From Chloroflexota bacterium (lineage in GTDB: Bacteria > Chloroflexota > Dehalococcoidia > UBA2979), in contig JAQCIU010000008.1 in the NCBI GenBank assembly GCA_027593235.1, forward strand, positions 47,871 through 111,870: a stretch of 64,000 nucleotides of DNA, written 5' to 3'. The translations under genes were made by a program, and so were the position numbers. The first letter of the stretch is position 1. Each line of letters begins with the position of its first letter. Below the pieces are notes generated by a model that ran no database searches, was not told where the DNA came from, and saw nothing but the letters and a program-made list of their open reading frames with translations. This document shows positions 1 to 64,000 of the stretch, piece after piece.

Positions 1-587
1 ACCAGCTCGTCGACCGGATCGTCCGCGCGGCGGGGACTGCGCCGCACCGCGATCACCTGGAGGTGGAGCGCCTGCGCCAACCGTGCGATCTCTGATCCGA
101 TCGCGCCGAGACCCACGATCACGGCCGTCTGACCACGCAGATCGGCCGGCTCGGCACCGTGCGGATGGCGCGACCACTCCCGCTCCCGCTGCGCCTCTGC
201 CCAGCGCGGGAAGCCGCGCGCTAGCTGGAGAAGTCCGCCGATCGCGGACCAGGCGATCGGCTCCGCCATCGCCCCGGAGACATTGGTGAGCCGGACCCCG
301 CCGGCAAGCAACCGTCCGAAGACATCGTCATCAATGCCGACGTGGGGCAGATGCACCCACCGCAGGTTCGGCGCCCGCGTCGCGCTGCCGTAGAACCGCC
401 GTGAGCCGCTCGGGTCCTCCTCGGGAATCGGCGGCGTCGCGATCTCGACGCGCTCGAGATCCGCGGCCGGGACCCGCTCCCCCGGTGCGGGGACGAAGAC
501 CGGCTCCACGCGCTCGCCGCCGTCCATCGCGGCGATCGCCCCGGCGTAGCGTTCGTATAGTTCAGGCGTGATCAGCAGCACCGACAT
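1..587 (-). CDS. D-2-hydroxyacid dehydrogenase family protein (3' end runs off the window)
   Basis: Manual translation from ATG 587: MSVLLITPELY...NLRWVHLPHVGID...RLTNVSG...LRGQTAVIVGLGAIGSEIARLAQAL (GxGxxG NAD-binding motif). Not in the ORF track. Confidence 0.85.
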   Translation of the reverse strand, partial: MSVLLITPELYERYAGAIAAMDGGERVEPVFVPAPGERVPAADLERVEIATPPIPEEDPSGSRRFYGSATRAPNLRWVHLPHVGIDDDVFGRLLAGGVRLTNVSGAMAEPIAWSAIGGLLQLARGFPRWAEAQREREWSRHPHGAEPADLRGQTAVIVGLGAIGSEIARLAQALHLQVIAVRRSPRRADDPVDEL

Positions 588-19432: not shown

Positions 19433-19518
19433 GGAGAGGTGGCCGAGCGGTTGAAGGCGCCTGTCTCGAAAACAGGTAGACGAGAGTCTCGCGGGTTCGA
19501 ATCCCGCCCTCTCCGCCA
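19433..19518 (+). tRNA. tRNA-Ser (anticodon CGA)
   Basis: GGAGAGG acceptor, CT-CGA-AA loop, long variable arm, GTTCGAATC, GCCA end. Confidence 0.97.
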
Positions 19519-40411: not shown

Positions 40412-41122
40412 CTAGGAGCGCGCGCCGGTGCGCAGTCGCGCTGCCCCGGCAACCGTCACGAGGACAGTCGCACCGAGCAGAACGAGCAGCTGGATGGAGG
40501 CAGCGCTACCACTGGTGACGCTTCCGTCGCCGGTGTCGGGCATGCCGCCAGCAATCGCAATGATGTCAACGTCGGCCAACGCTGGGCCAGCCGCAATCGC
40601 CGTCTCGGCGCCAGCGCCGTCCGGGTCAGAGCTGAGCGAGGCCGCCGTCGTCTAGGCATCCGCCGTCTTCAGCGCTTCGAACGTCAGTTCGAAGGAGAAG
40701 TCGATGGAAACCATCCCGAAGGCACAGTCGATGACGCCAGCACCAGTCAGCGAGCACTGGCTCAGGCTGATGCCATTCCACGAAGCACCCAGGTACTTCA
40801 GCTCACTGTCGTCGAACGTGTACTCGACGTCAGCGGTGTTTGCCGCCGGCACGTCAAGGGCCACGTCGACGCGGAAGCTGACCGTCTCACCAACGCGGGC
40901 CGGGTTCGGCGACGCGAGAGTGTTGTCAATCCCAACCGTCGAAGGCAGAACCTCAACCGTCGGGGCCGGGGTCGGCTCGACCGTCGGGGCCGGCGTCGGG
41001 TCAATCGGAGCCGCGAGGAACAGGGCGTAGCACGTCTTGTTCGCGTCCATCAGCACCGCGACGGTGTTACTGAATCCACCGCAGTCGCCACTCCAACCAC
41101 CGAAGGTTGAACCAGTCGAGGG
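40412..41122 (-). pseudogene. 5'-truncated sortase-substrate surface protein with internal amber stop
   Basis: Partial InlB-B/Flg_new-like repeat (STFGGWSGDC..V.MDANKTC.A.F), PT linker, DUF11-like domain, TAG at 40654-40652, then in frame MPDTGDG + TM + RLRTGARS*. Confidence 0.8.
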
Positions 41123-42713: not shown

Positions 42714-42748
42714 CGCCCCGTCGTCGCCGGCTCGACTGACTCCGAGGG

Positions 42749-44716: not shown

Positions 44717-44907
44717 GACGGCGACGATCCTCGAGGTGACTCGAACACGGGTGGGCGCGCGGCAGACGGCGGCGGCGGTGAGCCTACCGAGATCATCGGA
44801 TCCCGCCCCATTCTCGCAAGTCACGACCCCGCATGGAGAAATGTGGCGCTTCAGGTCGCACGAGAGCGCCGCGTCCGCCACACTCTGGACGGCGAAGGGA
44901 GCACCGC

Positions 44908-46323: not shown

Positions 46324-46460
46324 CGTCAGGCCCGCTGGCGCGCCCGCACACCCGGACGCCGATAACGTTCGCACCCCAACGAGCCTGATCCTGCCGAAGT
46401 CGCCGTGTTTTGCCCGTTCCGGAAACCTCCGTGAAACATGACGCTGACTACCATGGGGAC

Positions 46461-47792
46461 ATGGTGAACGACGGCACGAAGCAACACGTGATCCAGTCCT
46501 GCCGCGATCACGACGTGAAGTTCATCCGCCTCTGGTTCACGGACATCCTCGGGATGCTCAAGTCGGTGGCGATCACCATCGAGGAACTCGAGCACGCGCT
46601 CAGCGACGGCGTCTCCTTCGATGGTTCCGCCATCGAGGGCTTCGCACGCCACGACGAGACGGACATGGTGGCGGTACCGGACACCTCCACCTTCCAAATC
46701 CTCCCCTGGCGTCCGCGCGAGCAGGCAGTCGCCCGCATGTTCTGCGACCTCCAGGTGCCCGGCGGCGATCCGTTCGTCGGCGATCCGCGCCACGTCCTCA
46801 AGCGCGTGCTCGCACGTGCCGCGGCCGCTGGCTACACCTTCTACATCTCCCCGGAGATCGAGTTCTTCTACTTCAAGGATTCGAAGAGCACGGAACCGCT
46901 CGACAGCGGCGGCTACTTCGATCTCACGCCGCTCGACGGCGGTTCGGATCTCCGACGCGAAACCGTGCTCGCCCTCGAACAGATGGGCATCGGCGTCGCG
47001 CTCAGCCATCACGAGGCGGCGCCCAGCCAGCACGAGATGGATCTCCGCTACACCGACGCGCTCACCATGGCCGACGCCGTGATGACGTACCGCCTCCTCG
47101 TCAAAGAGGTCGCCATGCGTCACGGCGTCTACGCCACCTTCATGCCAAAGCCGCTCGCCAACGAGAACGGCTCGGGCATGCACCTCCAGCTCTCCCTCTT
47201 CCGAGGCGAAGCCAACGCGTTCTACGACGAAACAGATCCACTGAAGATCTCCCCGATCGCTCGCCACTACATCGCCGGGCTGCTCTCACATGCCCCGGAG
47301 CTGATGCTCCTCACCAACCAGTGGGTCAACTCCTACAAACGACTGGTGCCCGGCACCGAGGCCCCGCTGTACGCGACCTGGTCGCCGAAGAGCCACTCGG
47401 ACCTCGTGCGTGTGCCCGAGTACAAGCCGGGCCTCGAGGTCTCCACGCGTATCGAGTACCGCGTGCCGGACGCCGCCTGTAACCCGTACCTCGCGTTCGC
47501 GGGCGTGCTTGCCGCCGGCCTGCGCGGCATCGAGGAAGGGCTACCGCTGCCCGCCCCCGTCACGGCCGCCACCGACGAACTCACCCGTGCGGAGATCGCC
47601 GCGCGTGGCCTCCAGGCGCTGCCCGGATCCCTCGGCGAAGCGATCGAACGCTTCGAGGGCTCCTCGTTCCTCCGCGAGAACCTCGGCGACCACGTCTTCG
47701 AGACCATCGTCGCGAACAAGAAGATCGAGTGGTCCGAGTACCGTTCGCAGGTCACACCCTTCGAACTCGACCGCTACCTCCCCCGCCTCTAG
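46461..47792 (+). CDS. Glutamine synthetase family protein (type I-alpha-like, divergent active site)
   Basis: FDGSAIEGF, SHHEAAPSQHE, FMPKP..NGSGMH, SYKRLVPG.EAP, RIEYRVPD. Confidence 0.9.
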   Translation: MVNDGTKQHVIQSCRDHDVKFIRLWFTDILGMLKSVAITIEELEHALSDGVSFDGSAIEGFARHDETDMVAVPDTSTFQILPWRPREQAVARMFCDLQVPGGDPFVGDPRHVLKRVLARAAAAGYTFYISPEIEFFYFKDSKSTEPLDSGGYFDLTPLDGGSDLRRETVLALEQMGIGVALSHHEAAPSQHEMDLRYTDALTMADAVMTYRLLVKEVAMRHGVYATFMPKPLANENGSGMHLQLSLFRGEANAFYDETDPLKISPIARHYIAGLLSHAPELMLLTNQWVNSYKRLVPGTEAPLYATWSPKSHSDLVRVPEYKPGLEVSTRIEYRVPDAACNPYLAFAGVLAAGLRGIEEGLPLPAPVTAATDELTRAEIAARGLQALPGSLGEAIERFEGSSFLRENLGDHVFETIVANKKIEWSEYRSQVTPFELDRYLPRL

Positions 47793-48873: not shown

Positions 48874-48905
48874 CAAGAAGCCGGGTCTCGCGACCCGGCT
48901 TCTTT
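48874..48905. terminator. Bidirectional intrinsic terminator between maoC and nuoN
   Basis: aagaagccgggtc-tcgc-gacccggcttcttt. Confidence 0.8.
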
Positions 48906-48966: not shown

Positions 48967-50436
48967 CTAGGCGAAGAGCGGCGCGATCGCCCGGTCGGCC
49001 ACCGTGTAAAACGGCGCGGCGTACAGGCCCACGAACAGCACGCCACCGAGGAGTACACCGGTCGTCAGGTACCCGGTCGGCGTCAGCCGCCAGCGGCTCG
49101 GATCCCCGTCTGGTTCGTACAGGTACATGTGCCGAATGACCTGCAAGTAGTAGTAGAGCGAGACGGTGCTCGCAACCAGCGCGATCACGACCAGCCAGGT
49201 GTACCCGGCGCTCACCACGGACTGGAACAGGATGAACTTCGTGAGGAAGCCGGCCAGCAGCGGCATGCCGGCGAGCGAGAACAAGCCCGCCGTCATCACC
49301 AGCGCCAGGTACGGGTTCGTCTGCGCCAGCCCTCGGAAGGAGGAGATCTCCTCGGTGCCGGTACGGTTGTAGAACGCAACGACGGCCATGAACACCGCGA
49401 GGTTCGTAATCAGGTAGCCCGTCAGGTGCAGCAGCAGCGCCGACCCGGTGTTGTCGGAAACCGCCGTGATCGCCATCAGCATGAAGCCGACCTGGCCGAT
49501 CGAGGAGTAGGCGAGCAGCCGCTTGATGTTGTGCTGCTGCAGCGCCACCAGGTTCCCGAACACCATCGTCAGCACCGCGATCGCGGCGACCATCCACTGC
49601 CACTCGTCGATCGCCGGCAGCAGCGGTCCGGCGAACCAGCGCAGCAACAGCGCGAACGTCGCTGCCTTCGAGGTCGCCGACAGGTAGGCGGTAATCGGAA
49701 TCGGCGCGCCCTCGTAGGCGTCCGGAGTCCACATGTGGAACGGCACCGCCGAGGCCTTGAAGCCCAGCCCGGCGATGATCAGCGCGAGACCTAGCACCAA
49801 CGGCAACTGCACATCGCTCGTGTCTCGGCTCAGCGCGGCGGCGATCTCGCTGTACTGCGTCGATCCGCCCACGCCGTAGAGGAAGCTCAGGCCGTAGAGC
49901 AGCATTGCCGAGGCAACGCCACCCAGCAGCACGTACTTCAGTGATGCCTCGCCAGAGCGCGCGTCGTTCTTCGCCATCCCGACCAGGATGTAGAGCGAGA
50001 ACGACATCACCTCGATCGCCAGGTACGCGGTCAACAGGTCGCGCGCACTGGCCATCAGCATCGCGCCGACGGTCGAGAAGAGCAGCAGCGAATAGAACTC
50101 GCCGGGGTGGCTGACGTGCTTCTGGATGTACTCGTGCGACCCAACGATCACGACCAGCGTGACGATCAGGAACACGAACCGGAAGAACGTGGTGAAGTTG
50201 TCGACCGTGACCAGCCGCGCGAAGTCCTTGTTCTCGTCGATCCACAAGCTGCTGAGGACGACCGCAACCACCAGCCCGACCACGGACAGCGCCGGCAGCG
50301 CGAAGCGCCCCAGGTTCAGCTCGCGCCGGAACGCGTCAGCGAACAGGACAAGCGCCGCGGTCACCGCGACCGCGATCTCCGGGCCAAGTAACTCGTACTG
50401 AAGGTTGAGGGCGTTACCCAGCAGATCGGTCGTCAC
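48967..50436 (-). CDS. nuoN: Complex I subunit N
   Basis: EASLKY, FKASAVPFHMWTPDAYEGAP, KRLLAYSSI. Confidence 0.96.
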   Translation of the reverse strand: MTTDLLGNALNLQYELLGPEIAVAVTAALVLFADAFRRELNLGRFALPALSVVGLVVAVVLSSLWIDENKDFARLVTVDNFTTFFRFVFLIVTLVVIVGSHEYIQKHVSHPGEFYSLLLFSTVGAMLMASARDLLTAYLAIEVMSFSLYILVGMAKNDARSGEASLKYVLLGGVASAMLLYGLSFLYGVGGSTQYSEIAAALSRDTSDVQLPLVLGLALIIAGLGFKASAVPFHMWTPDAYEGAPIPITAYLSATSKAATFALLLRWFAGPLLPAIDEWQWMVAAIAVLTMVFGNLVALQQHNIKRLLAYSSIGQVGFMLMAITAVSDNTGSALLLHLTGYLITNLAVFMAVVAFYNRTGTEEISSFRGLAQTNPYLALVMTAGLFSLAGMPLLAGFLTKFILFQSVVSAGYTWLVVIALVASTVSLYYYLQVIRHMYLYEPDGDPSRWRLTPTGYLTTGVLLGGVLFVGLYAAPFYTVADRAIAPLFA

Positions 50437-50503
50437 GAGAGTCTCCTCGGGCGCGACGGCGCGGTCCTCGAGCGTTCGGTGCGAAGCGTCAGCGTGCGCG
50501 CCA

Positions 50504-51994
50504 TTAGAGCGTTACACCCGGAATGGTCTGCGCGATCGTCGTGGAGATGCGATCGACCCACGGCGACGGCCAGAGACCCAGGAAGAGGATCGTGCCGGCC
50601 AACACGGTTGCGCCCGCCCGCTCCGCGATCGTGATCTCCTTCAGCTCGCTCCACCTCGGGTTGAATTCCCCGAAGAACGCCTGAGAGAACATCCGCAGCA
50701 GGTAGGTCGCCGTGATCGCCGCCGTCAGTACGGCCAGCCCGCCGATCACCGGATAGACGCGGAACGTGCCAATAAAGATGTGCACCTCGGCCACGAACCC
50801 GGACATCCCCGGCAAACCCAGCGAGGCGAGTCCCGCGATCACGAAGAACACGGTCCAGATCGGCATCTGCTTCGCCATCCCGGAGAAGTTCGGGATGTCG
50901 CGGTTGTGGCTCTGGTCGTACATCGCGCCGATCAGCAGGAAGAAGAGGGCCGTCATCACACCGTGCGCGAACATCTGCAGGACCGCACCGGTCCAGCCGA
51001 TGACGTTCATCGTGCCCAGGCCGAGCATCACGTAGCCCATGTGCGAGACCGAGGAGAACCCGGTCATCAGCTTCATGTCGGTCTGACGCAGCGCGGAGAT
51101 CGCGCCGTAGAGCGCGGCGGTGATACCGACAAGCATCAGCGCCGGCGCCCAGAACGCGCCGCCCTCCGGCATCATCTGGAACCCAAGCCGGATGATCCCG
51201 AACGCCCCAAGCTTCATCAGCACGCCGGCGTGGAGCATCGAAACCGCGGTCGGCGCGGAGGCGTGGCCGTCCGGTGACCAGGAGTGGAACGGGAACATCG
51301 CCGCCAGGATGCCGCAGCCCACCGCCACCATCGGGAAGTAGAGCTTCTGGAAGTCCTCGTCGAACCCGACGTCGTAGAGGTCGACCATGTCGAACGTCCC
51401 GAGGCCGGCCTCGGCGTAGATGGCGAAGATCGCGGTGAAGATCAGGATCGAGCCCGCGAGTAGCATCATCATCAGCTTCATCGCGCCGTATTCCTTGCGC
51501 GTGGAGCCCCAGACGGCGATCAGCAGGTACATCGGCAGCAGTGCGGTTTCGTAGAGCAAGAACCACATGAACATATCGAGCATCACGAACGTGCCGAACA
51601 CGCCCGCGGTGAGGATGTAGAGGAGGATGAAGAAGTCCTTCATCCGGTTCTGAATCTTCCAGGACACCCATGTGCCGGGCACGATCACGATGCCGGTGAG
51701 CAGCACCATCGCCGCCGCGATGCCGTCGACGCCGACCTTGAGCTGGATGCCCTCGTCGCCGAGTAGACCCACGTTGCTCATGTAGTCCCAGGCCTTCACG
51801 CCCTGGAACTGGTCGCCACCGAAGTCGTACGTCAGGAACACGTAGAGCGAGATTGCGAACATCGCGAGGCTGGACGCCGCGGTGAGCGCGATGATCAGCG
51901 AGCGCTCCTTCGAGGGCACCAGCATCAACAGCACAGCCGTACCGAGCGGGATCAGGAAGACCGCTAGGAGGGCGAAGGCGTCGTTCTCGACCAT
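50504..51994 (-). CDS. nuoM: Complex I subunit M
   Basis: GVDG, PMYLLI..WG, PFHSWSPDGH..AP, MKLG, QMFAHG, LGLPG.SGFVAE. Confidence 0.96.
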   Translation of the reverse strand: MVENDAFALLAVFLIPLGTAVLLMLVPSKERSLIIALTAASSLAMFAISLYVFLTYDFGGDQFQGVKAWDYMSNVGLLGDEGIQLKVGVDGIAAAMVLLTGIVIVPGTWVSWKIQNRMKDFFILLYILTAGVFGTFVMLDMFMWFLLYETALLPMYLLIAVWGSTRKEYGAMKLMMMLLAGSILIFTAIFAIYAEAGLGTFDMVDLYDVGFDEDFQKLYFPMVAVGCGILAAMFPFHSWSPDGHASAPTAVSMLHAGVLMKLGAFGIIRLGFQMMPEGGAFWAPALMLVGITAALYGAISALRQTDMKLMTGFSSVSHMGYVMLGLGTMNVIGWTGAVLQMFAHGVMTALFFLLIGAMYDQSHNRDIPNFSGMAKQMPIWTVFFVIAGLASLGLPGMSGFVAEVHIFIGTFRVYPVIGGLAVLTAAITATYLLRMFSQAFFGEFNPRWSELKEITIAERAGATVLAGTILFLGLWPSPWVDRISTTIAQTIPGVTL

Positions 51995-52005
51995 CCCCGG
52001 GCCTC

Positions 52006-53919
52006 CTACGTCGTGCCGATGGCGACGATCGCCAACGCTGCGACGCCAAGCGCCATGCCAAGTGCGTAGTTCGGGATGCGTCCCGTTTGCAGGAACTTGA
52101 GCCGGTGTCCGAGGAACCCGATGAGTTGGGTCCCGCCGTCGACCCCGGTCTCGTTCACCACCCGCTTGTCGAACCAGGCCACCACGCGGGCCGCGCCCAG
52201 CACGACATTGTTGATGAACGCCTGGTACAGCTCGTCCATGTAGTAGCGGCGTGCGAAGAGCTGATGCAGCTCTGGCGCCCAGTTACGCGCCGCAATCGAC
52301 CGGCGGGCGTCGCCGCCCCAGTACATGAAGCCGATCACGATCCCGGCTACCGCCGTCGCCGTCGCCGATCCGGCGAAGACCCAATCGATCTCGAAGATGT
52401 GCGGCTCGCCGTGTGCCACGACGAACTCGCCGATGCCGCCGACAAACCCGAGCGTCTCGCCAACACCCTTGAAGGCGATCAAGCCGCTGACCGTCGCCAG
52501 CGTCGCGAGGATCGCCAGCGGCGCGGTCATGATCGGCGGCGACTCGTGCGCGTGGTCGTAGGCGTGCTGATCCTTCGGCTCGCCGAAGAAGGTCAACAGC
52601 ACGAGGCGCGTGGTGTAGATCGCGGTAAGACCGGCGGTGGCTGCAAGGACGCCGTACGCCCAGAGGGGACCGTCCTTCTGGAGGTCGTGAAGGATCTCAT
52701 CCTTCGACCAGAAGCCGGCGAAGATCGGAATGCCGGCGAGCGCGAGACTGCCGATCGTGAAGGTGATCGCCGTGATCGGCATCTTCTTACGCAAGCCACC
52801 GAGGTGGCCAACCTCCTGCTGCTCGGTCGCGTGAATGACCGACCCGGAGCCGAGGAAGAGCAGCGACTTGAAGAAGGCGTGCGTGAGCAGGTGGAACATC
52901 GCCGCGGTCAGCGCGCCGACACCGAGGGCCACGAACATGAAGCCTAGCTGCGAGATCGTCGAGAACGCGAGCACCCGTTTGATGTCGGTCGCGACGAGAC
53001 CCATGGTCGCCGCCATGAAGGCGGTCAGCAGACCAGTATAGAGGACGATGTCACGGGCGATCAGCACCTCGTTGTAGACCGGGAGCATGCGCGCGACGAG
53101 GTAGACGCCGGCGACAACCATCGTGGCCGCGTGGATCAGCGCGGAGACGGGGGTCGGGCCCTCCATCGCATCCGGCAGCCAGACGTGGAGCGGGAACTGC
53201 GCGGACTTTCCGGCCGCCCCGGCGAAGAGGAAGATCATCGCCACGGTGAGGTAGGTCTCGCCGATCCCGCCCGATTCCGCGGCGTGGATGATGTCCTGGA
53301 TGTCGAAGGTTCCGGTGGCCCGCCAGAGCAGGATGATGCCGATCAGCAGACCGACGTCACCGATGCGGGTGGTGATGAACGCCTTCTTCGCCGCCTCGGC
53401 CGCCGACTGGCGTTCCCAGTAGAAGCCGATCAGCAGGTACGAGGCGAGACCGACGCCTTCCCAGGCGAGGTAGAGCTGGAGCAGGTTGCCGGAGACGACC
53501 AGCAGCAACATCGCAGCGACGAAGAGCGACAGCGCGGAGAAGTACCAGCCGTAGCGCTGCTCACCGCGCATGTAGCCAATCGAGTAGACGAGGACCATCA
53601 GCGCGACGAAGGAGACAACCGGGAGCATCACCATCGTCACGGCGTCGACGTAGGTGCTGAACTCGATGATGAAGAAGCCGTCGCCGATGTTGATCCAGTC
53701 GAAGGCGTACGTGTTCGCGCCCGCTGCCGGGTGGAACAGGTCGTCGACGAACGAGCCCTGGAAGTCCGCGAGCACGAAGCCGACGAGCACGACAACGGCG
53801 GCCATACCGAGCACCGCCAGACCATCGCCGTTGCGCGGCAGGAACCGGCCAAGCAGGCCGAGCACCAGGAACACCACGAACGGGATCGCCGGGAGGATCC
53901 AGACCTCTTCCATGCCCAC
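52006..53919 (-). CDS. nuoL: Complex I subunit L
   Basis: WEGVGL.SY.LIGF, GKSAQFPLHVWLPDAMEGPTPVSALIHAATMV; start GTG 53919 or ATG 53913. Confidence 0.97.
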   Translation of the reverse strand: MGMEEVWILPAIPFVVFLVLGLLGRFLPRNGDGLAVLGMAAVVVLVGFVLADFQGSFVDDLFHPAAGANTYAFDWINIGDGFFIIEFSTYVDAVTMVMLPVVSFVALMVLVYSIGYMRGEQRYGWYFSALSLFVAAMLLLVVSGNLLQLYLAWEGVGLASYLLIGFYWERQSAAEAAKKAFITTRIGDVGLLIGIILLWRATGTFDIQDIIHAAESGGIGETYLTVAMIFLFAGAAGKSAQFPLHVWLPDAMEGPTPVSALIHAATMVVAGVYLVARMLPVYNEVLIARDIVLYTGLLTAFMAATMGLVATDIKRVLAFSTISQLGFMFVALGVGALTAAMFHLLTHAFFKSLLFLGSGSVIHATEQQEVGHLGGLRKKMPITAITFTIGSLALAGIPIFAGFWSKDEILHDLQKDGPLWAYGVLAATAGLTAIYTTRLVLLTFFGEPKDQHAYDHAHESPPIMTAPLAILATLATVSGLIAFKGVGETLGFVGGIGEFVVAHGEPHIFEIDWVFAGSATATAVAGIVIGFMYWGGDARRSIAARNWAPELHQLFARRYYMDELYQAFINNVVLGAARVVAWFDKRVVNETGVDGGTQLIGFLGHRLKFLQTGRIPNYALGMALGVAALAIVAIGTT

Positions 53920-53959
53920 TAGCGGGCCTGCCCTTCCGGTCGTCCGCGCGTCATGCCGC

Positions 53960-54268
53960 TTACCATTTCAGCGTGTCCGCCGCGTCGACGTACGAGGTGC
54001 GCCGCTCTCGGAAGAGCCGCAGCACGATACCCAGGGCCAGACCAACCTCGGCCGCGGCCACGGTGATGACGAAGAGCGCGAAGATGAGGCCACTGAACGC
54101 CTCACCATCGAGGTACGCGGCGAACGCGATGAAGTTGATCGAGACCGCGGCGAGCATCAGCTCCACCGACATCAGGATCAAGATCGCGCTGCGCCGAGCG
54201 AGCACGCCGTAGAGACCGGTGGCGAAGAGGATGCCGGCGAGGATCAGGAAGTTCTCGAGCGGGATCAC
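53960..54268 (-). CDS. nuoK: Complex I subunit K
   Basis: MSVELML, VAAAEVGLAL. Confidence 0.96.
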   Translation of the reverse strand: MIPLENFLILAGILFATGLYGVLARRSAILILMSVELMLAAVSINFIAFAAYLDGEAFSGLIFALFVITVAAAEVGLALGIVLRLFRERRTSYVDAADTLKW

Positions 54269-54909
54269 GAGGCGGCCTCACCCTCGGGCGTCGCGTCATC
54301 CTCGCGTGGCGGTCGCGCGTTGACCAGGGCGCCCGACAGCGCGATGTCCAGCAGCACGCCGACGATGATGACCGGGACGATGAAGTCCTTGAACAACCGC
54401 GCGCCGAAGTCGCGGAACGGAATGACCGCAGCCGTCTCCGCGCCCCATTCGGCGTCGATTGCCGCGGCGATGAAGATGCTCGCGAGGAGCAACCCGACGA
54501 TGGCTGCAAACGGCTTCTGCGACCCGTCGGTCACGACCGGGTCGGCCTGCGCGTTGGTCAGCATCAGACCAAAGATGATCAGAATGACCACGCCGCCGCC
54601 GTAGACGAGGATCTGGACGAGCGCGATGAACTCGGTCGCCAGCAGCAGGTAGATCGCCGCGACCCCGAGCAGCGTCGCGACCAGCGCGAGCGCGGCGTGG
54701 ACGATGTTGCTCAGCAGCACGGTGCCGAGGGCGCCCGCGACGATGACGGTGAAGGCGAGCCAGAACACCAGCTCCGCCGCCGAGATTTGATCGCCGACGA
54801 GCAGCGCCAGCAGCACGACCAGAATTGGCGTGAGCACGAGGGCCACGACGGCGCCGCCGGCCATGATGATCCGGTCGAACTGCGCCGGGAGCGGTAAGCG
54901 GTCAATCAC
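54265..54909 (-). CDS. nuoJ: Complex I subunit J
   Basis: NIVHAAL, EFIALVQILVYGG. Confidence 0.93.
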   Translation of the reverse strand: MIDRLPLPAQFDRIIMAGGAVVALVLTPILVVLLALLVGDQISAAELVFWLAFTVIVAGALGTVLLSNIVHAALALVATLLGVAAIYLLLATEFIALVQILVYGGGVVILIIFGLMLTNAQADPVVTDGSQKPFAAIVGLLLASIFIAAAIDAEWGAETAAVIPFRDFGARLFKDFIVPVIIVGVLLDIALSGALVNARPPREDDATPEGEAAS

Positions 54910-54947
54910 GCGTGCATCCTCGGACGCTGAGGCAGACGGCGGTCCGT

Positions 54948-55418
54948 CTACTCAGCGACCCACTCCTGTAGCTGCTTCGCTTTGCTCTGTGCCAACAACT
55001 GCGGCAAGTCCATGACGAGATCCGCTCGGTCGTAGACCGACGTCTCGTGTCCCTGCCACGTGTTGTTCATCGCGATGGCCTCGAAGTTGCAGACTTCGAC
55101 GCAGATGTTGCAGCGCATGCAGCGCGCGTAGTCGATGTAGAACTTGTCGATGATCTTGCGGCGCTTGGAATCCCCGCCCTGCGACGAGTGGTTCGGGTTG
55201 TCCTTCATGATGACGGTCATGCACTCGACGGGGCAGGCGCGCTCGCACGCGTGACAGCCGGTGCAGAACGGCTCGTCGATGTCCTGATCCCACAGCAGGA
55301 GCGGAAACGCGCGATCTCGTTCCGGCAACTCGCGGTGCCGTTCCGGGTACTCGCGGGTCACCGGCTTCCGCATGAATGTGGATGCGGTGACCATCATGCT
55401 CTTCAAAATGCCCTTCAT
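54948..55418 (-). CDS. nuoI: Complex I subunit I (2x[4Fe-4S])
   Basis: CTGCHACERACP and CMRCNICVEVC. Confidence 0.95.
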   Translation of the reverse strand: MKGILKSMMVTASTFMRKPVTREYPERHRELPERDRAFPLLLWDQDIDEPFCTGCHACERACPVECMTVIMKDNPNHSSQGGDSKRRKIIDKFYIDYARCMRCNICVEVCNFEAIAMNNTWQGHETSVYDRADLVMDLPQLLAQSKAKQLQEWVAE

Positions 55419-56590
55419 CAGACGGCCTCGCTCTGAAGTGGGGCGACCGGGGCGGGCCGCGGGCGCGGGTGTCGGACTGCGCGGTCGACGATGACGAAGA
55501 GGGCGACGACCCCAACGAGACCGACGGCGGTGAGGATGATCTCAGGCCAGTCGTAGACGAGCACCAACCCGTTCACGAGGACCTGGGCGAGCATCAGCGG
55601 GAGTAGCACCTTCCAACTGAAACTCATCAATTGGTCGATGCGCAGGCGTGGCACGCTGGCGCGAATCCAGATGATGAGGAAGAAGAAGGCGCCGGACTTG
55701 ATCGCGACGGCGATCGCCTGCAGCCAGCGGCCGGGCGCTTCGTCCATCCAGATGCCGAACGGCCAGGCCCAGCCACCGAGGAACACGGCGGCGAAGATCA
55801 GGCTCATGATCAACAGCGCGGCGTACTCCGCGAGGAAGAACATCGACCAGCGGATGCCGGAGTACTCGACGAACGGACCGCCGACGACCTCGGACTCACC
55901 GACCGGGATGTCGAAAGGGGTGCGGTTGAGCTCGGCGAGCGCGGCGATGATGAAGACGATCATCACCAGCGGCTGCCAGACGAGGTTCGGAACCTCGTGC
56001 TGCGCCGCGATGATTTCGTTGAGGTTGAGTGAGCCGCGGAGCAATTCGCCGTCGCCGACGGGGACTTCGACGATCATCGCCACGGCGACGAGCGAAAGCA
56101 CCAGCGGCAGTTCGTAGGAGATGCCCTGAGCCGCGGCGCGCATGCCGCCGATCATCGCGTAGCGGTTGTCGGAACCCCAGCCGGCCATGATCCAGCCGAC
56201 GATGTTCACGCCGCTGACCGCGACGAAGTAGAGCAGGCCGAGTTCGAGGACGCGGATCTGCCAGTCGAGAACGAACGGCACGATCACGAACCCGAGGAAG
56301 ACCGGAATGAAGACGAGGAACGGCGCCAGCTCGAACGTCCACGGGTCCGCGTTGCGGGGCCGGAGGTCTTCCTTGCCGATGAGCTTCAGCGCGTCGGCGA
56401 TGGACTGGAGCGTCCCGACGGGACCGGTGCGGGTCGGACCGAGGCGCTGCTGGAAGCGCGCCAGGATCTTTCGCTCGGCGTAGATGAGGGCCATGACCAC
56501 CACGGTCATGAAGCCCACGATGATCAAAACGCGGATCAGCGCGTCAAGCCAGACGTTGACGTTTTCGATCCCGAAAATCTCGGTGTTCAA
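55418..56590 (-). CDS. nuoH: Complex I subunit H
   Basis: ERK..A..Q.R.GP, DALKL..KE, ISYE, NRTPFD, RIDQLM..WK. Confidence 0.96.
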   Translation of the reverse strand: MNTEIFGIENVNVWLDALIRVLIIVGFMTVVVMALIYAERKILARFQQRLGPTRTGPVGTLQSIADALKLIGKEDLRPRNADPWTFELAPFLVFIPVFLGFVIVPFVLDWQIRVLELGLLYFVAVSGVNIVGWIMAGWGSDNRYAMIGGMRAAAQGISYELPLVLSLVAVAMIVEVPVGDGELLRGSLNLNEIIAAQHEVPNLVWQPLVMIVFIIAALAELNRTPFDIPVGESEVVGGPFVEYSGIRWSMFFLAEYAALLIMSLIFAAVFLGGWAWPFGIWMDEAPGRWLQAIAVAIKSGAFFFLIIWIRASVPRLRIDQLMSFSWKVLLPLMLAQVLVNGLVLVYDWPEIILTAVGLVGVVALFVIVDRAVRHPRPRPAPVAPLQSEAV

Positions 56591-57711
56591 CGATCGACCT
56601 CAGACAACACGATGTCGATGGACCCGAGGATGATGATCGCATCGGCGACGTACTGTCCAACCGACATCTGCTTCAGGGCCTGGAGGTTCGACAAACAGGC
56701 GCTGCGGACCTTGAGGCGATAGGGCTTGTTGCCGCCCTTGCTGACCATGTAGATGCCGTACTCGCCGCGCGGCGCTTCGGTACGGATGTAGACCTCGCCC
56801 TCCGGCAGGCGGAGCATGCGCGGCATCTTCTCCGGCATGATCGGGCCGTCTTCGAGCCGCTCGAGACACTGCTCGACGATGCTGATGGACTGCAGGATTT
56901 CCTGCATGCGGACCCAGTAACGATCGAAGACGTCGCCACCCTCGGCGGTGATCACCTCGAAGTCGATCTGGTCGTAGTAGAGGTACGGCTCGGTCTTGCG
57001 GAGGTCGAGCGGGACGCCCGAGGCGCGGAGCGACGGACCGCTCATGCCGATCTCGATCGCGTCCTCGGCGGAGATGATGCCGACGTTCTTGGTGCGAGCG
57101 AGGAAAATCTCGTTTTCGGTCAGCAGGCCGTCGAAGTCCTTGACGCCCTGGCGTGCGGACTTGAGCACCTCACCGACGCGCTCCCGGAAGTTCGCCGGGA
57201 CTTCCCAGGCGAGGCCGCCGGCGCGGAAGTAGGCGTACATCATGCGGTCGCCGCTGATCTCCTCGAAGAGATCGATGATCGTTTCGCGCTCGCGCCAGGC
57301 GTAGATGAACGGCGTGCCGAAGACGCCAACGTCGACGCCGAAGGCGCCGAGGAACATGAAGTGGCTGCTGATGCGGTTAAGTTCGCAGAGGATCATCCGG
57401 ATCCACTGCGCTCGCTCGGGGACCTCGATGTCGGCGAGCTTCTCGACGGCCATGACGTAGGAGAGTTCGGCGTTGTGTGCCGCGAGGTACTCCGTGCGAT
57501 CCATATACCCGATGCCCTGGCGGAAGTCGTTGTTCTCGCAGAGCTTCTCGGCGCCGCGGTGGAGGTAGCCGATGTACGGGACGAGGTCGCGCACGACCTC
57601 GCCGTCGATCTCCAACACCATGCGGAACACGCCGTGGGTGGACGGGTGCTGCGGACCAACGTTGATCAGCAGATCCTGGGTTTCGAACTCGACGGCGGGT
57701 TCAACAACCAT
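56587..57711 (-). CDS. nuoD: Complex I subunit D
   Basis: GPQHPSTHGV, GYLHRG.EK, ELNRI.SH, EAPRGE, SEVDR. Confidence 0.97.
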   Translation of the reverse strand: MVVEPAVEFETQDLLINVGPQHPSTHGVFRMVLEIDGEVVRDLVPYIGYLHRGAEKLCENNDFRQGIGYMDRTEYLAAHNAELSYVMAVEKLADIEVPERAQWIRMILCELNRISSHFMFLGAFGVDVGVFGTPFIYAWRERETIIDLFEEISGDRMMYAYFRAGGLAWEVPANFRERVGEVLKSARQGVKDFDGLLTENEIFLARTKNVGIISAEDAIEIGMSGPSLRASGVPLDLRKTEPYLYYDQIDFEVITAEGGDVFDRYWVRMQEILQSISIVEQCLERLEDGPIMPEKMPRMLRLPEGEVYIRTEAPRGEYGIYMVSKGGNKPYRLKVRSACLSNLQALKQMSVGQYVADAIIILGSIDIVLSEVDR

Positions 57712-57713
57712 CG

Positions 57714-58280
57714 TTAGTCCTCCACTTCCGCGTCGCGGTTGTGGCCAAGCAGCTCACCCTGGAGCAGTTCGATCTCCGCAAACGGATGCGACTTCAGCAG
57801 CGGGTGAGTGTCCGACATGTCGACATCCTCTGGCATGAGGAGCGGGCGCGGATCCGGATGGTTCGTGAAGGTGACACCGAACATCTCGGCTGTTTCGCGT
57901 TCGAGCCAGTCGGCGGCGCGCCAGACGGTGGTGGCGGTATCGAGGACCTTCTGGTCGTTCGGGAGCGTGGTCTTGACGGTGAGGTTGAGGTTCTTCGGCA
58001 CGGAGTAGAGGTGGTAGACCACGTCCACACCGTCGGCCTCGTTGTCGACCGCGGTAAGCGACCGGAGGTAGTTGAACTGCAGCGCCTCGTCATGCTTGAG
58101 CATGTTGAGGCCGCGGATGATGTCCGCCGGGGGGATGTGAACGATCAAATCGAGGACACCGCGTTCGGGCTGGACATCGACGGCGGTCAACGTGCGGTTC
58201 ACGTCCGGCCAGATGGTGTCCGCGAAGGTGTCGGGCGCGGCGGTCTCGGCGGCCTCTGTGGCGCCATCCTCGGTCGTCAT
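57714..58280 (-). CDS. nuoC: Complex I subunit C
   Basis: ATG 58280; LTAVD, VVYHL, WLERE..EMFG..F..HPD, HPLLK. Confidence 0.93.
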
Positions 58281-58924
58281 GCGCCGCGGCCCAGGGAAGA
58301 ACGCTCTTCCATAATCATGTCCTGGAGCGCGAGGAATGAGTCGATCAACGCCTCCGGGCGCGGGGGGCATCCGGGGACGTAGACGTCGACCGGGATGATC
58401 TTGTCGACACCCTGGAGGACGCGGTCGTAACGGGTGTAGGGACCGCCGTTGGTGGCGCAGGCACCCATGGAGATGACCCACTTGGGGTTCGGCATCTGTT
58501 CGTAGAGCAGCTTGACCGCGGGGGCCATCTTTTTGGTGACCGTGCCGGCGACGATCATCACGTCCGACTGGCGGGGGGACGGCCACGGCACGATGCCGAA
58601 GCGGTCCAGGTCGTAGTGGGACATGTAGGTCCCGATCATCTCGATGGCGCAGCAGGCGAGGCCGAAGGTCATCGGCCAGAGCGATGACTTCCTCGATGCG
58701 GCGAGTACGAGATCGAGCGGCACCTGCATGACGCCGGGCAGTGCCTGGCGATAGAGCGCCTTACCGGGCTGCGGGACGATCGGCGCCAAGACGGGCGCCT
58801 CGTTCGGGTGCTCGCCAGGAGGCGTTGGCATTGCCGGCGGCGCCTCGGGGGTGGCGGGGGCCACCGCCGGAGCGGCGGTTTCGGTGGTCGCGGTGGAGGT
58901 TTCGAGGTCGGAGCTTATCGCCAC
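58277..58924 (-). CDS. nuoB: Complex I subunit B
   Basis: [31 protein letters not shown]; GTG 58924 overlaps the nuoA end. Confidence 0.96.
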
Positions 58925-59289
58925 TGGAGCGCTCCCTTCTTCCACGCGTAGGCGAGGCCGAGCGACAGGATCCCTATGAAGACGACCATGGTCCAGTACG
59001 CCAACGGACCGACGCCGACGAACGACAGGGCCCACGGGAAGATGAAGACGGCTTCAACGTCAAAGATGATGAAAAGAATTGCATAGAGGTAGAAGCGGTT
59101 ACCGACATTGGTGGAGGCACGTCGCAGCGGCAGCATGCCGCACTCGTAGGTGGTGCCCTTTTCCCGCTCCTCGGAGAAGGGGGCGAGCAGCCGTGACCCA
59201 ATGAGGGCACTGAAGACAAGGAAAAAGCCAGCGATGCTGGCGATCAGAACAGGAATGTAGTTCGAGAAGAGCTGGTCGATCGGCAGCAC
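58915..59289 (-). CDS. nuoA: Complex I subunit A
   Basis: [19 protein letters not shown]. Confidence 0.96.
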
Positions 59290-60319: not shown

Positions 60320-63028
60320 TTAGCCCAGTTCGGTCAGGCTCTGGCGCAGTCCCGCTAGTCGGGACTGCGCTGTTTCGAGGCGATCCCGCTCGCGCTGGGC
60401 GACGTCCGCAGGGGCGCGGGCGGTGAACTGCTCGTTGCCGAGCTTGCCCTCGATGCCACCGACCTCGCGCTCTGCTTCGGCGATCTGCTTGCCGATGCGC
60501 TCGCGCTCGACTGCGGGATCGAACAGCCCTGCCATCGGCAGGGCGACCTGGCCGACGGCAAGTACCGAGGTGACCACACCCTCCGAGGGCGCTTCGGCTG
60601 TTGTCGCGACGACGTGCAGCGGGCGCACGCGAGCGAGCTGCTCGATGGCGTCGCTGAGCGCGGTGGCGCTCTCGACGGCGTCGCCACCGACGACGTAGGC
60701 CTCGATCCAGCGGCCGGCGTCGACGCGCTTCTCGGCGCGGATGTTGCGGATGGCGCGCACGAACTCCTGGACCGCCTCGAAACTGGCTTCCGCCGCTTCG
60801 TCGATCAGCGCCGTGTTGGCCTCGGGATAGCGGGCGACGATCAGCGCTTCTGCGCCGTCGGGGTCGGGTGCGATCGCGGCGAGGCGCTGCCAGATCTCCT
60901 CGGTGACGAACGGCATGAACGGGTGCAGCATCCGCAGCGTGCGGTCGACGACGTGAACCAGCACGGGCAGCGGCGTGCGGTCGTCGGCACGGACGCGCAC
61001 CTTGGCGACCTCGATGTACCAGTCGGCGAACTCGTCCCAGAAGAAGTCACGGGTCTGGCGCAGCGCCTCGGCGAGCTCGAAGCGACCGGTGAGTCGCTCC
61101 ACGTTCTGGTTCACCTGGTTCAACCGCGACAACACCCAGCGGTCCTCGACCGGCATCGTCGCCGGGTCCGGCAGCGACAGGTCGTCGCCCTCCTCCACCA
61201 TGCCGAGGGCAAAGCGGGAGGCGTTCCACAGCTTGTTGGCGAAGTTGCGACCGGCCTCGAGACGTTCGTCGCTGAGGCGCTGGTCGTTGCCGGGCGAGGT
61301 GCCGGAGAGCAGCGCGAAGCGCAGCGCGTCGGAGCCGTACTGGTCCACGGCGCCCAGCGGGTCGACTGCCGTGCCCTTGGACTTCGACATCTTCGAGCCG
61401 TCGGCTGCGCGGACGAGGCCGTGCAGGTAGACGTGCTCGAAGGGGACGACGCCGTCCATGTTGTAGAGAGACAGCATTATCATCCGCGCCACCCAGAAGA
61501 AGATGATGTCGTAGCCGGTCTCCATCACCTGGGTGGGGTAGAAGCGCTTCAGGTCCTCGGCGTCCTCGTCGGGCCAGCCGAGCGTCGAGTGCGGCCAGAG
61601 GCCCGAGGAGAACCAGGTGTCGAGGGTGTCCTCGTCCTGGGTGATGTTGGAGCCCTCGCAGGACTCGCAGAACGTCGGGTCGGTGATGCCGACGGTGAGC
61701 GCCTCGCAGTCCTCGCAGTACCAGACCGGGATGCGGTGGCCCCACCAGATCTGACGGCTGATGCACCAGTCGCGGATGTTCTCCATCCAGTGCAGGTAGG
61801 TGCGCTCGAAGCGTTCCGGCACGAACTTGATGCGGCCGTCCTTGACCGCCTCGATCGCCGGGTCGGCGAGCGGCTGGATCTTGACCCACCACTGGAGCGA
61901 CACCAACGGCTCGATGATGGCGCCGGAGCGTTCGCTGTGGCCGACGGCGTGCGTGTAGGGCTCGGTCTTCTCGAGGAGCCCGGCCGACTCGATGTCGGCG
62001 ACGATCCGCCGGCGACCCTCGTCGCGGTCGAGTCCGGCGTACTGGCCGGCGTTCTCGTTCAGCGTCCCGTCGAGGTTGAGGATGTTGATGATCTCGAGGC
62101 CGTGGCGCTCGCCGATCTCGAAGTCGACGGGGTCGTGCCCGGGGGTGACCTTGAGCGCTCCCGAACCACCCTCGATGTCGACGGCTTCGTCGGCGATCAC
62201 GGTGACGGCGCGGCCAGTCATGGGAACGATCACCTTGCGGCCCACGAGGTCGCGGAACCGATCGTCCTCGGGGTTCACAGCGACGGCGGTGTCGGCCGGG
62301 ATCGTCTCGGGGCGGGTGGTGGCGATCACGACGTAGCGGTCAGTCGGATTGCCCTCGTCGTCCGCGATCGGGTAGCGGACGTGCCAGAAGGCGGACTCCA
62401 CGTCCTCGTACTCGACCTCGATGTCGGAGACGGCAGTCTGGCTGACCGGGTCCCAGTTGATCAGGCGCTCGGCACGGTAGATCAGGCCGTCGTCGTAGAG
62501 CTTCTTGAAGGTGAGACGGACGGCACGCTCGCGCGCCTCGTCCATCGTGAAGGCCTCGCGCTCCCAATCGGCGGAGGCGCCAAGGCGCCGGTGCTGCTCG
62601 GCGATCCTCGAGCGGGACGTGTTCACGAACTCCCAGACGCGCTTGAGGAACTCCTCACGGCCGATGTCGTGCCTCGAAATGCCCTGCTCGCGGAGCTGGC
62701 GCTCGATGATGGCGTTCACGGCGATCGCGGCGTGGTCGACGCCTGGCAGCCAGAGCGTGTCGTCGCCCTTCATGCGGTGCCAGCGGACCAGGGCGTCTTC
62801 GACAGCGGTGGTCAGTGCGTGGCCGACGTGCAACTCACCGGTGAGGTTGGGTGGCGGCTGAATGATCGTGAACGGAGTCGCGCCCGGACGACTCGGGCGG
62901 AAGGCACCGCTCTGTTCCCAGCCGGCATAGACCCGCTGTTCGACCGAGCGCGGATGGTAGGCGGTACTCATCTCGATGCCTTCGGCAGGCGCCATCTCGT
63001 TCGCGTCAGTCGTCGGCTCTGTGGTCAT
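60320..63028 (-). CDS. valS: Valyl-tRNA synthetase
   Basis: PPPNLTG.LHVGH, WCISRQIWWGH, LDTWFSS, KMSKS, C-terminal coiled coil. Confidence 0.98.
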   Translation of the reverse strand: MTTEPTTDANEMAPAEGIEMSTAYHPRSVEQRVYAGWEQSGAFRPSRPGATPFTIIQPPPNLTGELHVGHALTTAVEDALVRWHRMKGDDTLWLPGVDHAAIAVNAIIERQLREQGISRHDIGREEFLKRVWEFVNTSRSRIAEQHRRLGASADWEREAFTMDEARERAVRLTFKKLYDDGLIYRAERLINWDPVSQTAVSDIEVEYEDVESAFWHVRYPIADDEGNPTDRYVVIATTRPETIPADTAVAVNPEDDRFRDLVGRKVIVPMTGRAVTVIADEAVDIEGGSGALKVTPGHDPVDFEIGERHGLEIINILNLDGTLNENAGQYAGLDRDEGRRRIVADIESAGLLEKTEPYTHAVGHSERSGAIIEPLVSLQWWVKIQPLADPAIEAVKDGRIKFVPERFERTYLHWMENIRDWCISRQIWWGHRIPVWYCEDCEALTVGITDPTFCESCEGSNITQDEDTLDTWFSSGLWPHSTLGWPDEDAEDLKRFYPTQVMETGYDIIFFWVARMIMLSLYNMDGVVPFEHVYLHGLVRAADGSKMSKSKGTAVDPLGAVDQYGSDALRFALLSGTSPGNDQRLSDERLEAGRNFANKLWNASRFALGMVEEGDDLSLPDPATMPVEDRWVLSRLNQVNQNVERLTGRFELAEALRQTRDFFWDEFADWYIEVAKVRVRADDRTPLPVLVHVVDRTLRMLHPFMPFVTEEIWQRLAAIAPDPDGAEALIVARYPEANTALIDEAAEASFEAVQEFVRAIRNIRAEKRVDAGRWIEAYVVGGDAVESATALSDAIEQLARVRPLHVVATTAEAPSEGVVTSVLAVGQVALPMAGLFDPAVERERIGKQIAEAEREVGGIEGKLGNEQFTARAPADVAQRERDRLETAQSRLAGLRQSLTELG

Positions 63029-63064
63029 CGGGCGCTCCGGTCGTGCCTCGCGGCGTTCGAGGGC

Positions 63065-63092
63065 AATAAGAAAGCCCCGCTTGGCGGGGCTT
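63065..63092 (-). terminator. Attenuator terminator in the valS leader
   Basis: AAGCCCCGC-CAA-GCGGGGCTT-TCTTATT oriented toward valS, 36 nt before its ATG. Confidence 0.85.
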
Positions 63093-63126
63093 CACGACAG
63101 GGTGGCGGCGGCCTCGCCGCCGTCGG

Positions 63127-63165
63127 CTACCTGTCGTGGGTGGATACTACTACGGGGCTGTACAT
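63127..63165 (-). CDS. valS leader peptide MYSPVVVSTHDR
   Basis: ATG TAC AGC CCC GTA GTA GTA TCC ACC CAC GAC AGG TAG. Confidence 0.8.
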   Translation of the reverse strand: MYSPVVVSTHDR

Positions 63166-63174
63166 CAGACCCTG

Positions 63175-63204
63175 ATGGTAGGAGGCCGCGCGGAGCGGGG
63201 TCAA
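63175..63204 (-). promoter_or_regulatory. valS promoter
   Basis: TTGACC-18 nt-TACCAT, 9 nt before the leader ATG. Confidence 0.65.
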
Positions 63205-63278
63205 TGCGGGGAGCCTCGATCGGCCTCGGGGCCGGGGCGGGGCGCGATCGGATCGACTGCGGGGGCGGGCGACGCGGA

Positions 63279-63581
63279 TCAGTCGCCGGCACCATGCGAC
63301 GAGATTGGCGCTCGACCGAGGTGCTCGCGCGTCTCGGCGACTGGTGCCGGGCTGTTTGGCTGACTGAGCCGTTCAAGCTGTGCGGGTTCGACCCAGGCGC
63401 GCCCGATCGGCGGCCGCCGATCGTCCGGCCCGTCCGGCCCGACGGCGTAGGTATCGAACTCAATCGCACCGCACCAACATCCCCAACTGTCCGCGCGATG
63501 TACCTGCGCGATGGGGAGCGAAACCACTGCATGCCGCACATGCTGGTGCGTCAGGGCGAGTCGAGCATCGCGATTCGGCAT
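63279..63581 (-). CDS. Putative 100-aa hypothetical protein with H..CWC motif
   Basis: GGGAGA before ATG 63581; HRADSWGCWCG; no recognisable family. Confidence 0.3.
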   Translation of the reverse strand: MPNRDARLALTHQHVRHAVVSLPIAQVHRADSWGCWCGAIEFDTYAVGPDGPDDRRPPIGRAWVEPAQLERLSQPNSPAPVAETREHLGRAPISSHGAGD

Positions 63582-63770
63582 CGGTCTCCCTGTAGTTCTC
63601 CTCCCCGCACTTTCCATTGGACCGGCGCTGGTCAGCCAAAGCTAGGCATTTCTATTAACGTTCCGTGATTACCAGCAAACGATTGCCTGTCGACGATCAG
63701 GCTCTGCGGGAGAGTCGATCGGGTTCGCGCTCGCTGAAGCGTCAATACACGGCGAAAGCCGAATCGATGG

Positions 63771-64000
63771 GAGGCGGGCCGGCGACTCGAGCTGGAACGA
63801 GCCGCCGACCCAGATCCTCTGGAGCGGGCCGACGACTCGAGCTGGAACGAGCCGCCGACCCGGATGCTCTGGAGCGGGTCGACGACTCGAGCTGGAACGA
63901 GCCGCCGACCCAGATGCTCTGGAGCGGGTCGACGACTCGAGCTGGAACGAGCCGCCGACCCAAATGCTCTGGAGCGGGCCCACGACTCGAGCTGGAACGA
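63771..64000. repeat. 50-bp tandem repeat array (at least 4.4 copies, runs off the window)
   Basis: Unit gacgactcgagctggaacgagccgccgacccagatgctctggagcgggtc starting at 63781, 63831, 63881, 63931 and 63981. Confidence 0.97.

Follow-up and report, generated by a model that had tools for sequence, protein, structure and literature searches.

Classical leader-peptide attenuators control the trp, his, leu and ilv operons and pheST in Proteobacteria, and ilvB in Actinobacteria. In the leu leader of Escherichia coli a rare synonymous codon, CUA, is reported to serve as the sensor. Genes for aminoacyl-tRNA synthetases are preceded by T-boxes in Bacillota and are controlled by varied mechanisms elsewhere; T-box leaders (RF00230) are the usual form of valS control in Bacillota. 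To our knowledge, synthetase regulation in uncultured, slow-growing Chloroflexota is essentially unknown. Here we describe the leader of valS, the gene encoding valine--tRNA ligase, on the minus strand of a stretch of 64,000 nucleotides (nt), hereafter the window, from a Chloroflexota bacterium of the Dehalococcoidia (UBA2979; assembly GCA_027593235.1, contig JAQCIU010000008.1, positions 47,871 to 111,870). A preliminary description of the window had proposed a valine-sensing leader-peptide attenuator at this site. The leader, short at about 140 nt, is a real, conserved feature and very probably a cis-regulator of valS which senses Val-tRNA by way of the ribosome. Its promoter, a near-leaderless upstream open reading frame (uORF) with a run of rare GTA valine codons and two GC-rich hairpins make it reasonably probable that it acts as a ribosome-mediated attenuator matching valS transcription to the supply of charged tRNA-Val.

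Several described systems come close to this locus. In Deinococcus deserti, leaderless leader peptides were predicted before tRNA synthetase genes (2014, PMC4007540), and the novelty that the preliminary description had attached to a cognate leader peptide at valS was thus put too strongly. Like these cases, our leader would open a leadered synthetase mRNA with a 5'-terminal AUG and encodes a peptide of around 10 amino acids enriched in the cognate residue (the D. deserti cysS leader has two Cys in 10 amino acids); the gene after it carries a Shine-Dalgarno sequence of its own, and transcription attenuation is proposed for both. Our leader differs in belonging to another phylum and in its kind of evidence, D. 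deserti being one genome with transcription start site data and ours three genomes studied by sequence alone. The main text of the D. deserti paper does not contain the word valS; 14 peptides are listed in its table S9, among which there may be a valS case. In the ilvB1 leader of Mycobacterium tuberculosis, GUA is named as the regulatory codon (PMC13236596). Mycobacterial polycysteine short open reading frames (sORFs; 10.1101/834739) likewise combine a leaderless short frame with a run of cognate codons as ribosome-stall sensor. They act on translation through a duplex which hides the ribosome-binding site, whereas in the valS leader no Shine-Dalgarno duplex is conserved and a terminator-like hairpin is. 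Upstream of the hisS paralogues of bacilli, His leader peptides have been predicted by Naville and Gautheret (PMC2965389). Finally, in tug-of-war riboswitches an upstream structure suppresses termination in a spacer-dependent manner, the effect being lost as the spacer grows (Bushhouse, Fu and Lucks, 10.64898/2026.06.17.733018); this preprint deals with riboswitches only and has no mention of a leader-peptide or uORF version. Our literature searches returned no description of a valS leader peptide or uORF and nothing on leader-peptide attenuation in Chloroflexi.

Reading of the minus strand between 62700 and 64000 bore out the layout given in the preliminary description, that is the promoter, the uORF with its GTA run, both hairpins and the distance to valS, all at the coordinates reported there. 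The following positions refer to the minus strand of the window. The -35 hexamer TTGACC (63199-63204) is separated by an 18-nt spacer from the -10 hexamer TACCAT (63175-63180), which lies 9 nt upstream of the uORF ATG. This promoter, seen on reading, is also the one site returned by a promoter scan of 62500-64000, where 0.1 were expected. The near-leaderless uORF (63127-63165; ATG at 63165, TAG at 63129-63127) has 12 codons plus the stop codon and encodes MYSPVVVSTHDR. Its codons 5-7 are three consecutive GTA valine codons (63145-63153), the proposed sensing codons. The last three sense codons, 10-12, form the 5' arm (63130-63138) of a predicted hairpin, termed P1, whose 3' arm (63093-63101) abuts the terminator stem. 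Enclosed in P1 is an inner hairpin, GGCGGCG-AGG-CCGCCGC(C) (63105-63124), with a GGCGGCG/CGCCGCC stem. It is followed by an intrinsic-terminator-like hairpin (63065-63092) consisting of a stem of 9 base pairs (bp) with the 3-nt loop CAA (63092-63072, -16.2 kcal/mol) and the tail TCTTATT (63071-63065).

The regulated gene, valS (60320-63028), starts with the ATG at 63028, 36 nt past the terminator tail, with a Shine-Dalgarno sequence GGAG (63035-63038) placed 6 nt upstream of the ATG. Its product of 902 amino acids is identified by NCBIfam NF004349 (1125.8 bits versus a cut-off of 704). The first 19-21 residues are an N-terminal extension, since the ValS family models align from residue 20-22 onward only; an MTT or MTS start is common to the nearest relatives, which supports the ATG at 63028. 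Between terminator and valS no promoter-like hexamers were seen by eye, neither in the window nor in the two related leaders described below, and valS would be reachable only through read-through of the terminator.

One scan of a genome collection with ValS gave 80 loci, the window's own genome not being among them. The nearest relatives are Dehalococcoidia metagenome-assembled genomes, designated L001 to L004, with ValS identities of 69%, 66%, 64% and 59%. Conservation of the Val run, a check set beforehand, was found in the two nearest. The valS leader of L001 reads TTGCCC-17-TACCAT, 9 nt, and then a 12-codon uORF, MHTPVVVVPGGG, with four consecutive GTA; after it come a nested hairpin using the last codons, GCCCCGC-TCCG-GCGGGGC and a T-rich tail. 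That of L002 reads TTGACC-18-TACCAT, 6 nt and a 12-codon uORF, MHERDVAVAAGG, with two GTA (codons 6 and 8), followed by a nested hairpin of the same kind and the same terminator stem, the tail being only TTG. The -10 hexamer TACCAT is invariant in the three leaders, and the counterpart of the valS Shine-Dalgarno sequence is found at the same place (GAAGGA in L001, GAGGAG in L002). All three uORFs are 12 codons long, and their peptides are not conserved except for M1 and V6. L003 and L004 have plain valS promoters and no uORF. At about 2900-2973 of L004, a TTGACG-17-TAGAAT promoter precedes a GC hairpin (GGCCCCGA/TCGGGGCC), with neither uORF nor T tract.

Wider searches did not extend this set. 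A permissive filter for Val-rich uORFs, applied to 81 upstream regions (some shortened by contig ends), picked the window, L001 and L002 together with ORFs in 15 other loci. The latter were dismissed on inspection of the ORFs: they are long frames with scattered Val codons, T-box GTGGTACC motifs in L057, L068, L071 and L073, a promoter taken for an ORF in L029 and, in L064, what is apparently the 3' part of a small gene rich in Cys. A covariance model (R1) built from the three leaders scored them at 105, 99 and 71 bits, the next best score in 81 sources (689 kb) being 15.8 bits; no copy beyond the three training sequences was found there. The stem core GCCCCGC-N(3-8)-GCGGGGC occurs once each in the window, L001 and L002, while the 78 other loci are without it. 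A quick ValS tree of 29 chosen rows places the three carriers in one clade (Shimodaira-Hasegawa-like approximate likelihood ratio support 99) with L003 as sister (100). As the carriers form one clade and their sister is without the element, the leader appears to have had a single origin or to have been lost in L003; the ValS path lengths over which it has persisted amount to 0.57-0.66 changes per site. Upstream of it lies an alpha/beta hydrolase gene in L002, whereas L001 and the window have unknown ORFs there that are unrelated. Because these neighbours differ among the three genomes, the leader belongs to valS.

The GTA codons had been called uncommon for this DNA, and codon counts agree. 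Among 49 window ORFs, picked by length and by GC content at third codon positions (a filter which may slightly understate GTA use), GTA accounts for 41 of 1,435 Val codons (2.9%; 2.4 per 1,000 codons). The valS gene of the window has one GTA among 74 Val codons, and those of L001 and L002 have none among 75 and 69; every Val codon in all three uORFs is GTA. The 9-mer GTAGTAGTA is present in two copies in the window versus 0.00 expected (100 shuffles), the second copy lying on the opposite strand within a nuo gene. Judged on these counts and on the layout shared with L001 and L002, the combination of a uORF of rare Val codons with this hairpin layout is not due to chance. A search of the 64 kb for other cognate-codon uORFs, taken as intergenic short ORFs with a run of three identical residues, gave only Arg, Ala, Pro, Thr and Ser runs, as expected from GC-rich DNA, none of them with repeated rare codons plus a -10 hexamer. 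There is no synthetase gene besides valS in the window.

The -10 hexamer ends 9, 9 and 6 nt before the uORF ATG (window, L001, L002), and for this reason the RNA would begin at, or a few nt from, the uORF AUG. The strict pattern TTGnnn-16..19-TAnnnT-5..10-RTG matches twice in the window, at the valS leader and at the start of a tRNA-Ser gene. At the latter, TTGAGC-16-TATACT (19431, plus strand) lies at the start of tRNA-Ser 19433-19518. This suggests that the organism uses sigma-70-type promoters of this form.

In ViennaRNA folds, P1 plus the terminator is both the minimum free energy (MFE) and the centroid structure of the window leader (-46.9 kcal/mol, z = -4.5, none of 200 shuffles as good); a longer stretch folded at the same locus gave z = -2.6. 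All three leader RNAs fold into the same two modules, with z = -4.5, -1.85 and -4.0 for the window, L001 and L002. In the same order, the P1 module amounts to -27.7, -24.1 and -40.3 kcal/mol versus -16.2, -16.4 and -20.8 kcal/mol for the terminator, and the spacer between the two is 0, 4 and 1 nt, a 3-nt overlap being seen only in an extended L002 fold. The terminator is present as a GC stem of 7-9 bp with a T-rich tail in the window and L001, the L002 tail being weak. A terminator scan tool reported no site in 62500-64000, possibly due to a G-T pair extending the stem into the T run; our own permissive scan placed the valS leader hairpin among eight hairpin-plus-T sites in the 64 kb. The hairpin resembles a bidirectional terminator between convergent genes at 48876-48903.

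Within the three genomes the uORF nucleotides 31-36 are always paired. The P1 pairs A-U, A-U and G-C of the window are replaced by G-C, G-C and C-G in L001 and L002. Stem covariation, a further point raised for this locus, was thus found: three of the six P1 core pairs are changed on both sides in the model-fitted alignment, and the whole-structure covariation of 0.281, versus 0.122 +/- 0.052 in shuffles, was reached by two of 500 shuffles. With three related sequences and an alignment misplacing part of L002, this appears supportive but not strong. The residues encoded at the P1 codons are D-R in the window and G-G in L001 and L002; hence it is the RNA that is conserved and not the peptide. 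The inner hairpin holds a block, CGAGGCCGC (63108-63116), which is identical in the three genomes, while the surrounding loop has 3, 7 and about 10 nt. As a 9-mer it is not rare in the window (7 found versus 4.4 expected). It includes GAGG, which is Shine-Dalgarno-like; since no start codon follows and the 9-mer is not rare, we rejected it as an internal Shine-Dalgarno sequence. A TRAP-like (G/U)AG repeat site and a tRNA-mimic loop for ValRS were likewise set aside by eye, due to misfitting spacing and loops.

Concerning the T-box, the usual solution at valS, the Infernal searches upheld its proposed absence. A scan of the window at Rfam gathering thresholds gave no family at the valS leader, and no T-box (RF00230) was found in 62900-63400 at E values up to 10. 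The best sub-threshold Rfam matches in the leader were terminator-like small RNA models covering only the GC hairpins. The scan of relatives covered the 19 nearest loci and 17 others out of the 80. None of the 19 nearest valS loci has a T-box; in four of the 17 others (L068, L071, L030, L060) one was found before valS, which serves as positive control. A T-box, or any other Rfam family, as the identity of the valS leader is ruled out by the scans of the window and the 19 nearest loci. L068 and L071 are Bacillaceae, L030 and L060 Chloroflexota. The T-boxes of the latter two lie at 2699-2932 of L030 (94.4 bits) and at 2579-2807 of L060 (118.2 bits). Within one phylum, valS is therefore preceded by a T-box, by a Val leader peptide or by neither. 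For Dehalococcoides, T-boxes are listed only for ileS and trp (Wels et al., PMC2494555). The leader described here shares with the T-box the proposed sensing of tRNA-Val charging, its position before valS and the terminator as output. It differs in that it has no T-box fold or sequence, and sensing would go via the ribosome instead of direct tRNA binding.

How such a leader might operate is suggested by its geometry. The first GTA stands at uORF nt 13, 13 and 16 and P1 begins at nt 28, 28 and 31 (window, L001, L002), a constant offset of 15 nt, and thus a ribosome waiting at the first hungry codon would leave P1 intact. The uORF stop codon lies inside or beside the P1 5' arm, so that a ribosome finishing the uORF would have to unzip P1. 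This geometry and the short spacer, taken together with the tug-of-war preprint, lead us to favour P1 as a non-overlapping antiterminator. In the model that we propose tentatively, a sigma-70-type promoter would start the RNA at or a few nt from the AUG of the 12-codon ORF, and transit of the ribosome over the rare GUA run would be timed by Val-tRNA, probably the minor UAC isoacceptor. Folded P1 would hinder the abutting terminator from seating in the RNA polymerase exit channel. With plentiful Val-tRNA, the ribosome would reach the stop codon and unwind P1 while the terminator is being made, and transcription would stop; with scarce Val-tRNA it would wait at the first GUA, about 15 nt before P1, leaving P1 folded and permitting read-through into valS. 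The model needs a pause which synchronises polymerase and ribosome, and which P1 itself might provide. Where transcription starts, that the uORF is translated, that transcripts end at the hairpin and which way the switch works are all inferred from the sequence. While we regard ribosome-mediated attenuation as reasonably probable, this particular ribosome-gated tug-of-war switch, in which P1 would block the terminator only sterically and without shared nucleotides, is a possible but doubtful version of it.

Like the classical attenuators, the valS leader has a short leader ORF with cognate codons and an intrinsic terminator before the structural gene, and its hairpin has a 5' strand that lies just past the Val-stalled ribosome and is covered by the ribosome at the stop codon. 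In the classical systems this stall and stop geometry is what defines the antiterminator; only the overlap with the terminator is missing here. It departs from them in having a near-leaderless uORF without a Shine-Dalgarno sequence and no antiterminator that overlaps the terminator, in its target, valS, and in its host, a Dehalococcoidia-like member of the Chloroflexota. Its likeness to the tug-of-war riboswitches lies in a stable structure placed 0-4 nt ahead of an intrinsic terminator that it does not overlap in sequence. The difference is that in those riboswitches a ligand stabilises the aptamer, whereas in the valS leader the structure would be taken away by a translating ribosome. With its unusual arrangement of hairpins, the leader could represent a new variant, a ribosome-gated steric antiterminator.

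A number of observations weigh against the proposed attenuator and, above all, against its steric switch. For constrained folding of full-length and truncated RNAs, the nucleotides under a ribosome whose A site holds one of the Val codons or the stop codon (the first 25-49 nt) were blocked, and columns were blocked likewise in alifold. On the single sequences as well as on the alignment, the terminator forms whatever the ribosome state, and these folds thus show no thermodynamic switch. Simple hairpins have been found to exert little or no effect on more stable terminators (10.64898/2026.06.17.733018), and the stems of the leader terminators are fairly stable (-16 to -21 kcal/mol), their T tracts being imperfect. 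As a control for abutment, the 60-nt MFE folds upstream of the seven other hairpin-plus-T sites end 0-12 nt from the terminator, four of the seven within 2 nt; as other sites also abut, abutment of P1 alone is not distinctive in GC-rich DNA. Polymerase pausing synchronised with slow leaderless initiation, which the model needs, is assumed. Across the 64-kb window the strict leaderless-promoter pattern matched no protein-coding gene, and hence nothing seen here points to frequent leaderless genes in this organism's genome. The carriers are three related sequences of a single evolutionary origin. Among them, L002 has a tail of only TT(G) and an interrupted Val run (V-A-V), and may work poorly or differently.

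An antiterminator of the classical kind was looked for with constrained folds and a pairing search in the three genomes, and no overlapping conserved one was found; it was rejected, the terminator being present in every constrained fold. The preliminary description had pointed to the uORF segment AGCCCCG, which could pair with the 3' arm of the terminator to give a mutually exclusive fold. This fold does exist in the window (8 bp, -16.8 kcal/mol). The segment is not complementary in L001 and L002, where the best uORF pairings use other segments, and a Val-stalled ribosome would cover the site, so that its role as the switch has to be given up. A classical polarity could still be obtained if a ribosome on the later GUA codons covered the P1 5' arm, P1 opened and a freed strand competed with the terminator, the candidate strand being CGAGGCC(G)CCGC, an invariant block similar to the 5' arm of the terminator. 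From the last Val codon it is 6-9 nt to the P1 core, and a stall there would melt at least four P1 pairs, while the block can pair with the terminator 3' arm and T tract at -16.3, -16.2 and -20.0 kcal/mol, matching the strength of the terminator helix. However, in the window and L001 P1 stays intact when the ribosome stalls at the first hungry codon, and the block is locked in the inner hairpin unless the ribosome has reached the stop codon, the opposite of the state that this model requires. The terminator is present in all states by constrained MFE and alifold; its 5' arm, situated between block and 3' arm, should win kinetically, and GC-rich strands of low complexity may by themselves give rise to such complementarity. 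We consider this reading unlikely, and CGAGGCCGC was rejected as antiterminator since, though complementary to the terminator 3' arm and T tract, it is sequestered in the inner hairpin.

Other explanations dispense with the terminator as the point of control, or with sensing altogether. If the short transcript were a stand-alone unit, a small RNA or a 12-amino-acid peptide gene with its own terminator, valS would be served by constitutive leak-through and the Val codons would sense nothing. Promoter, short ORF and terminator do make a complete unit, and attenuator RNAs can act in trans, e.g. rnTrpL of Sinorhizobium (PMC6614838), but it is the rare Val codons and the RNA pairing that are conserved and not the peptide, the element always stands directly before valS despite differing upstream genes, and there is no copy elsewhere in 689 kb; we judge this quite improbable. 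To translational or stability control as in the mycobacterial leaderless Cys sORFs, where the ribosome, once stalled, would expose the ribosome-binding site of valS or shield the mRNA, and the terminator would be merely leaky, we assign very little probability. A leaderless sORF with cognate codons is indeed the sensor format of Canestrari et al. (10.1101/834739), and in the window a pairing is predicted between GCCCCG of the uORF and CGGAGC at the Shine-Dalgarno sequence of valS, where also the P1 3' arm matches the adjoining CACGACCGG at 8 of 9 positions. Neither pairing is present in L001 or L002, whose Shine-Dalgarno regions differ, and the conserved parts are P1 and the terminator, with no helix sequestering the Shine-Dalgarno sequence; masking of the latter, predicted in the window alone, was discarded. 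A non-functional origin, i.e. a chance short ORF in a GC-rich intergenic region also holding the terminator of the upstream gene, draws on the readiness of GC-rich DNA to fold and on the L001 z-score of merely -1.85. It is extremely improbable in view of GTA runs at the same uORF position in three genomes otherwise nearly without GTA, the compensatory changes in P1, the differing upstream genes and a promoter placed between the upstream gene and the hairpins.

If the leader is a ribosome-mediated attenuator, as we favour, a Dehalococcoidia clade would have a proposed ribosome-based sensor where other Chloroflexota (L030, L060) use a T-box, adding to the examples of RNA devices that can stand in for one another in a single regulatory task, and it would be the first ribosome-mediated attenuator described in Chloroflexota. 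Should the switch between P1 and terminator also hold true, searching for mutually exclusive hairpins could not find all attenuators. The recently reported steric antitermination would then gain a natural, ribosome-operated counterpart, and amino-acid attenuation a third route beside the overlapping-hairpin and ribosome-binding-site-masking types.

Further features were noted elsewhere in the window. A tandem repeat with a 50-nt period occupies 63774-64000, with at least 4.5 copies and 95% matches, and runs off the window end; a degenerate copy begins at about 63724, inverted repeats are found inside each unit, and the period is not divisible by three. On the same strand as valS and 1.3 kb downstream of it, 48967-59035 holds the nuo genes B, D, H, I, J, K, L, M and N. 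Two glnA-type genes and two asparagine-synthase-like genes lie at 41037-47792. ARAGORN calls a tRNA-Arg(gcg) at 2345-2418, inside the opposite-strand ORF 1528-2490; the Rfam gathering scan gave three other tRNAs only and not this one, which is probably a false call.

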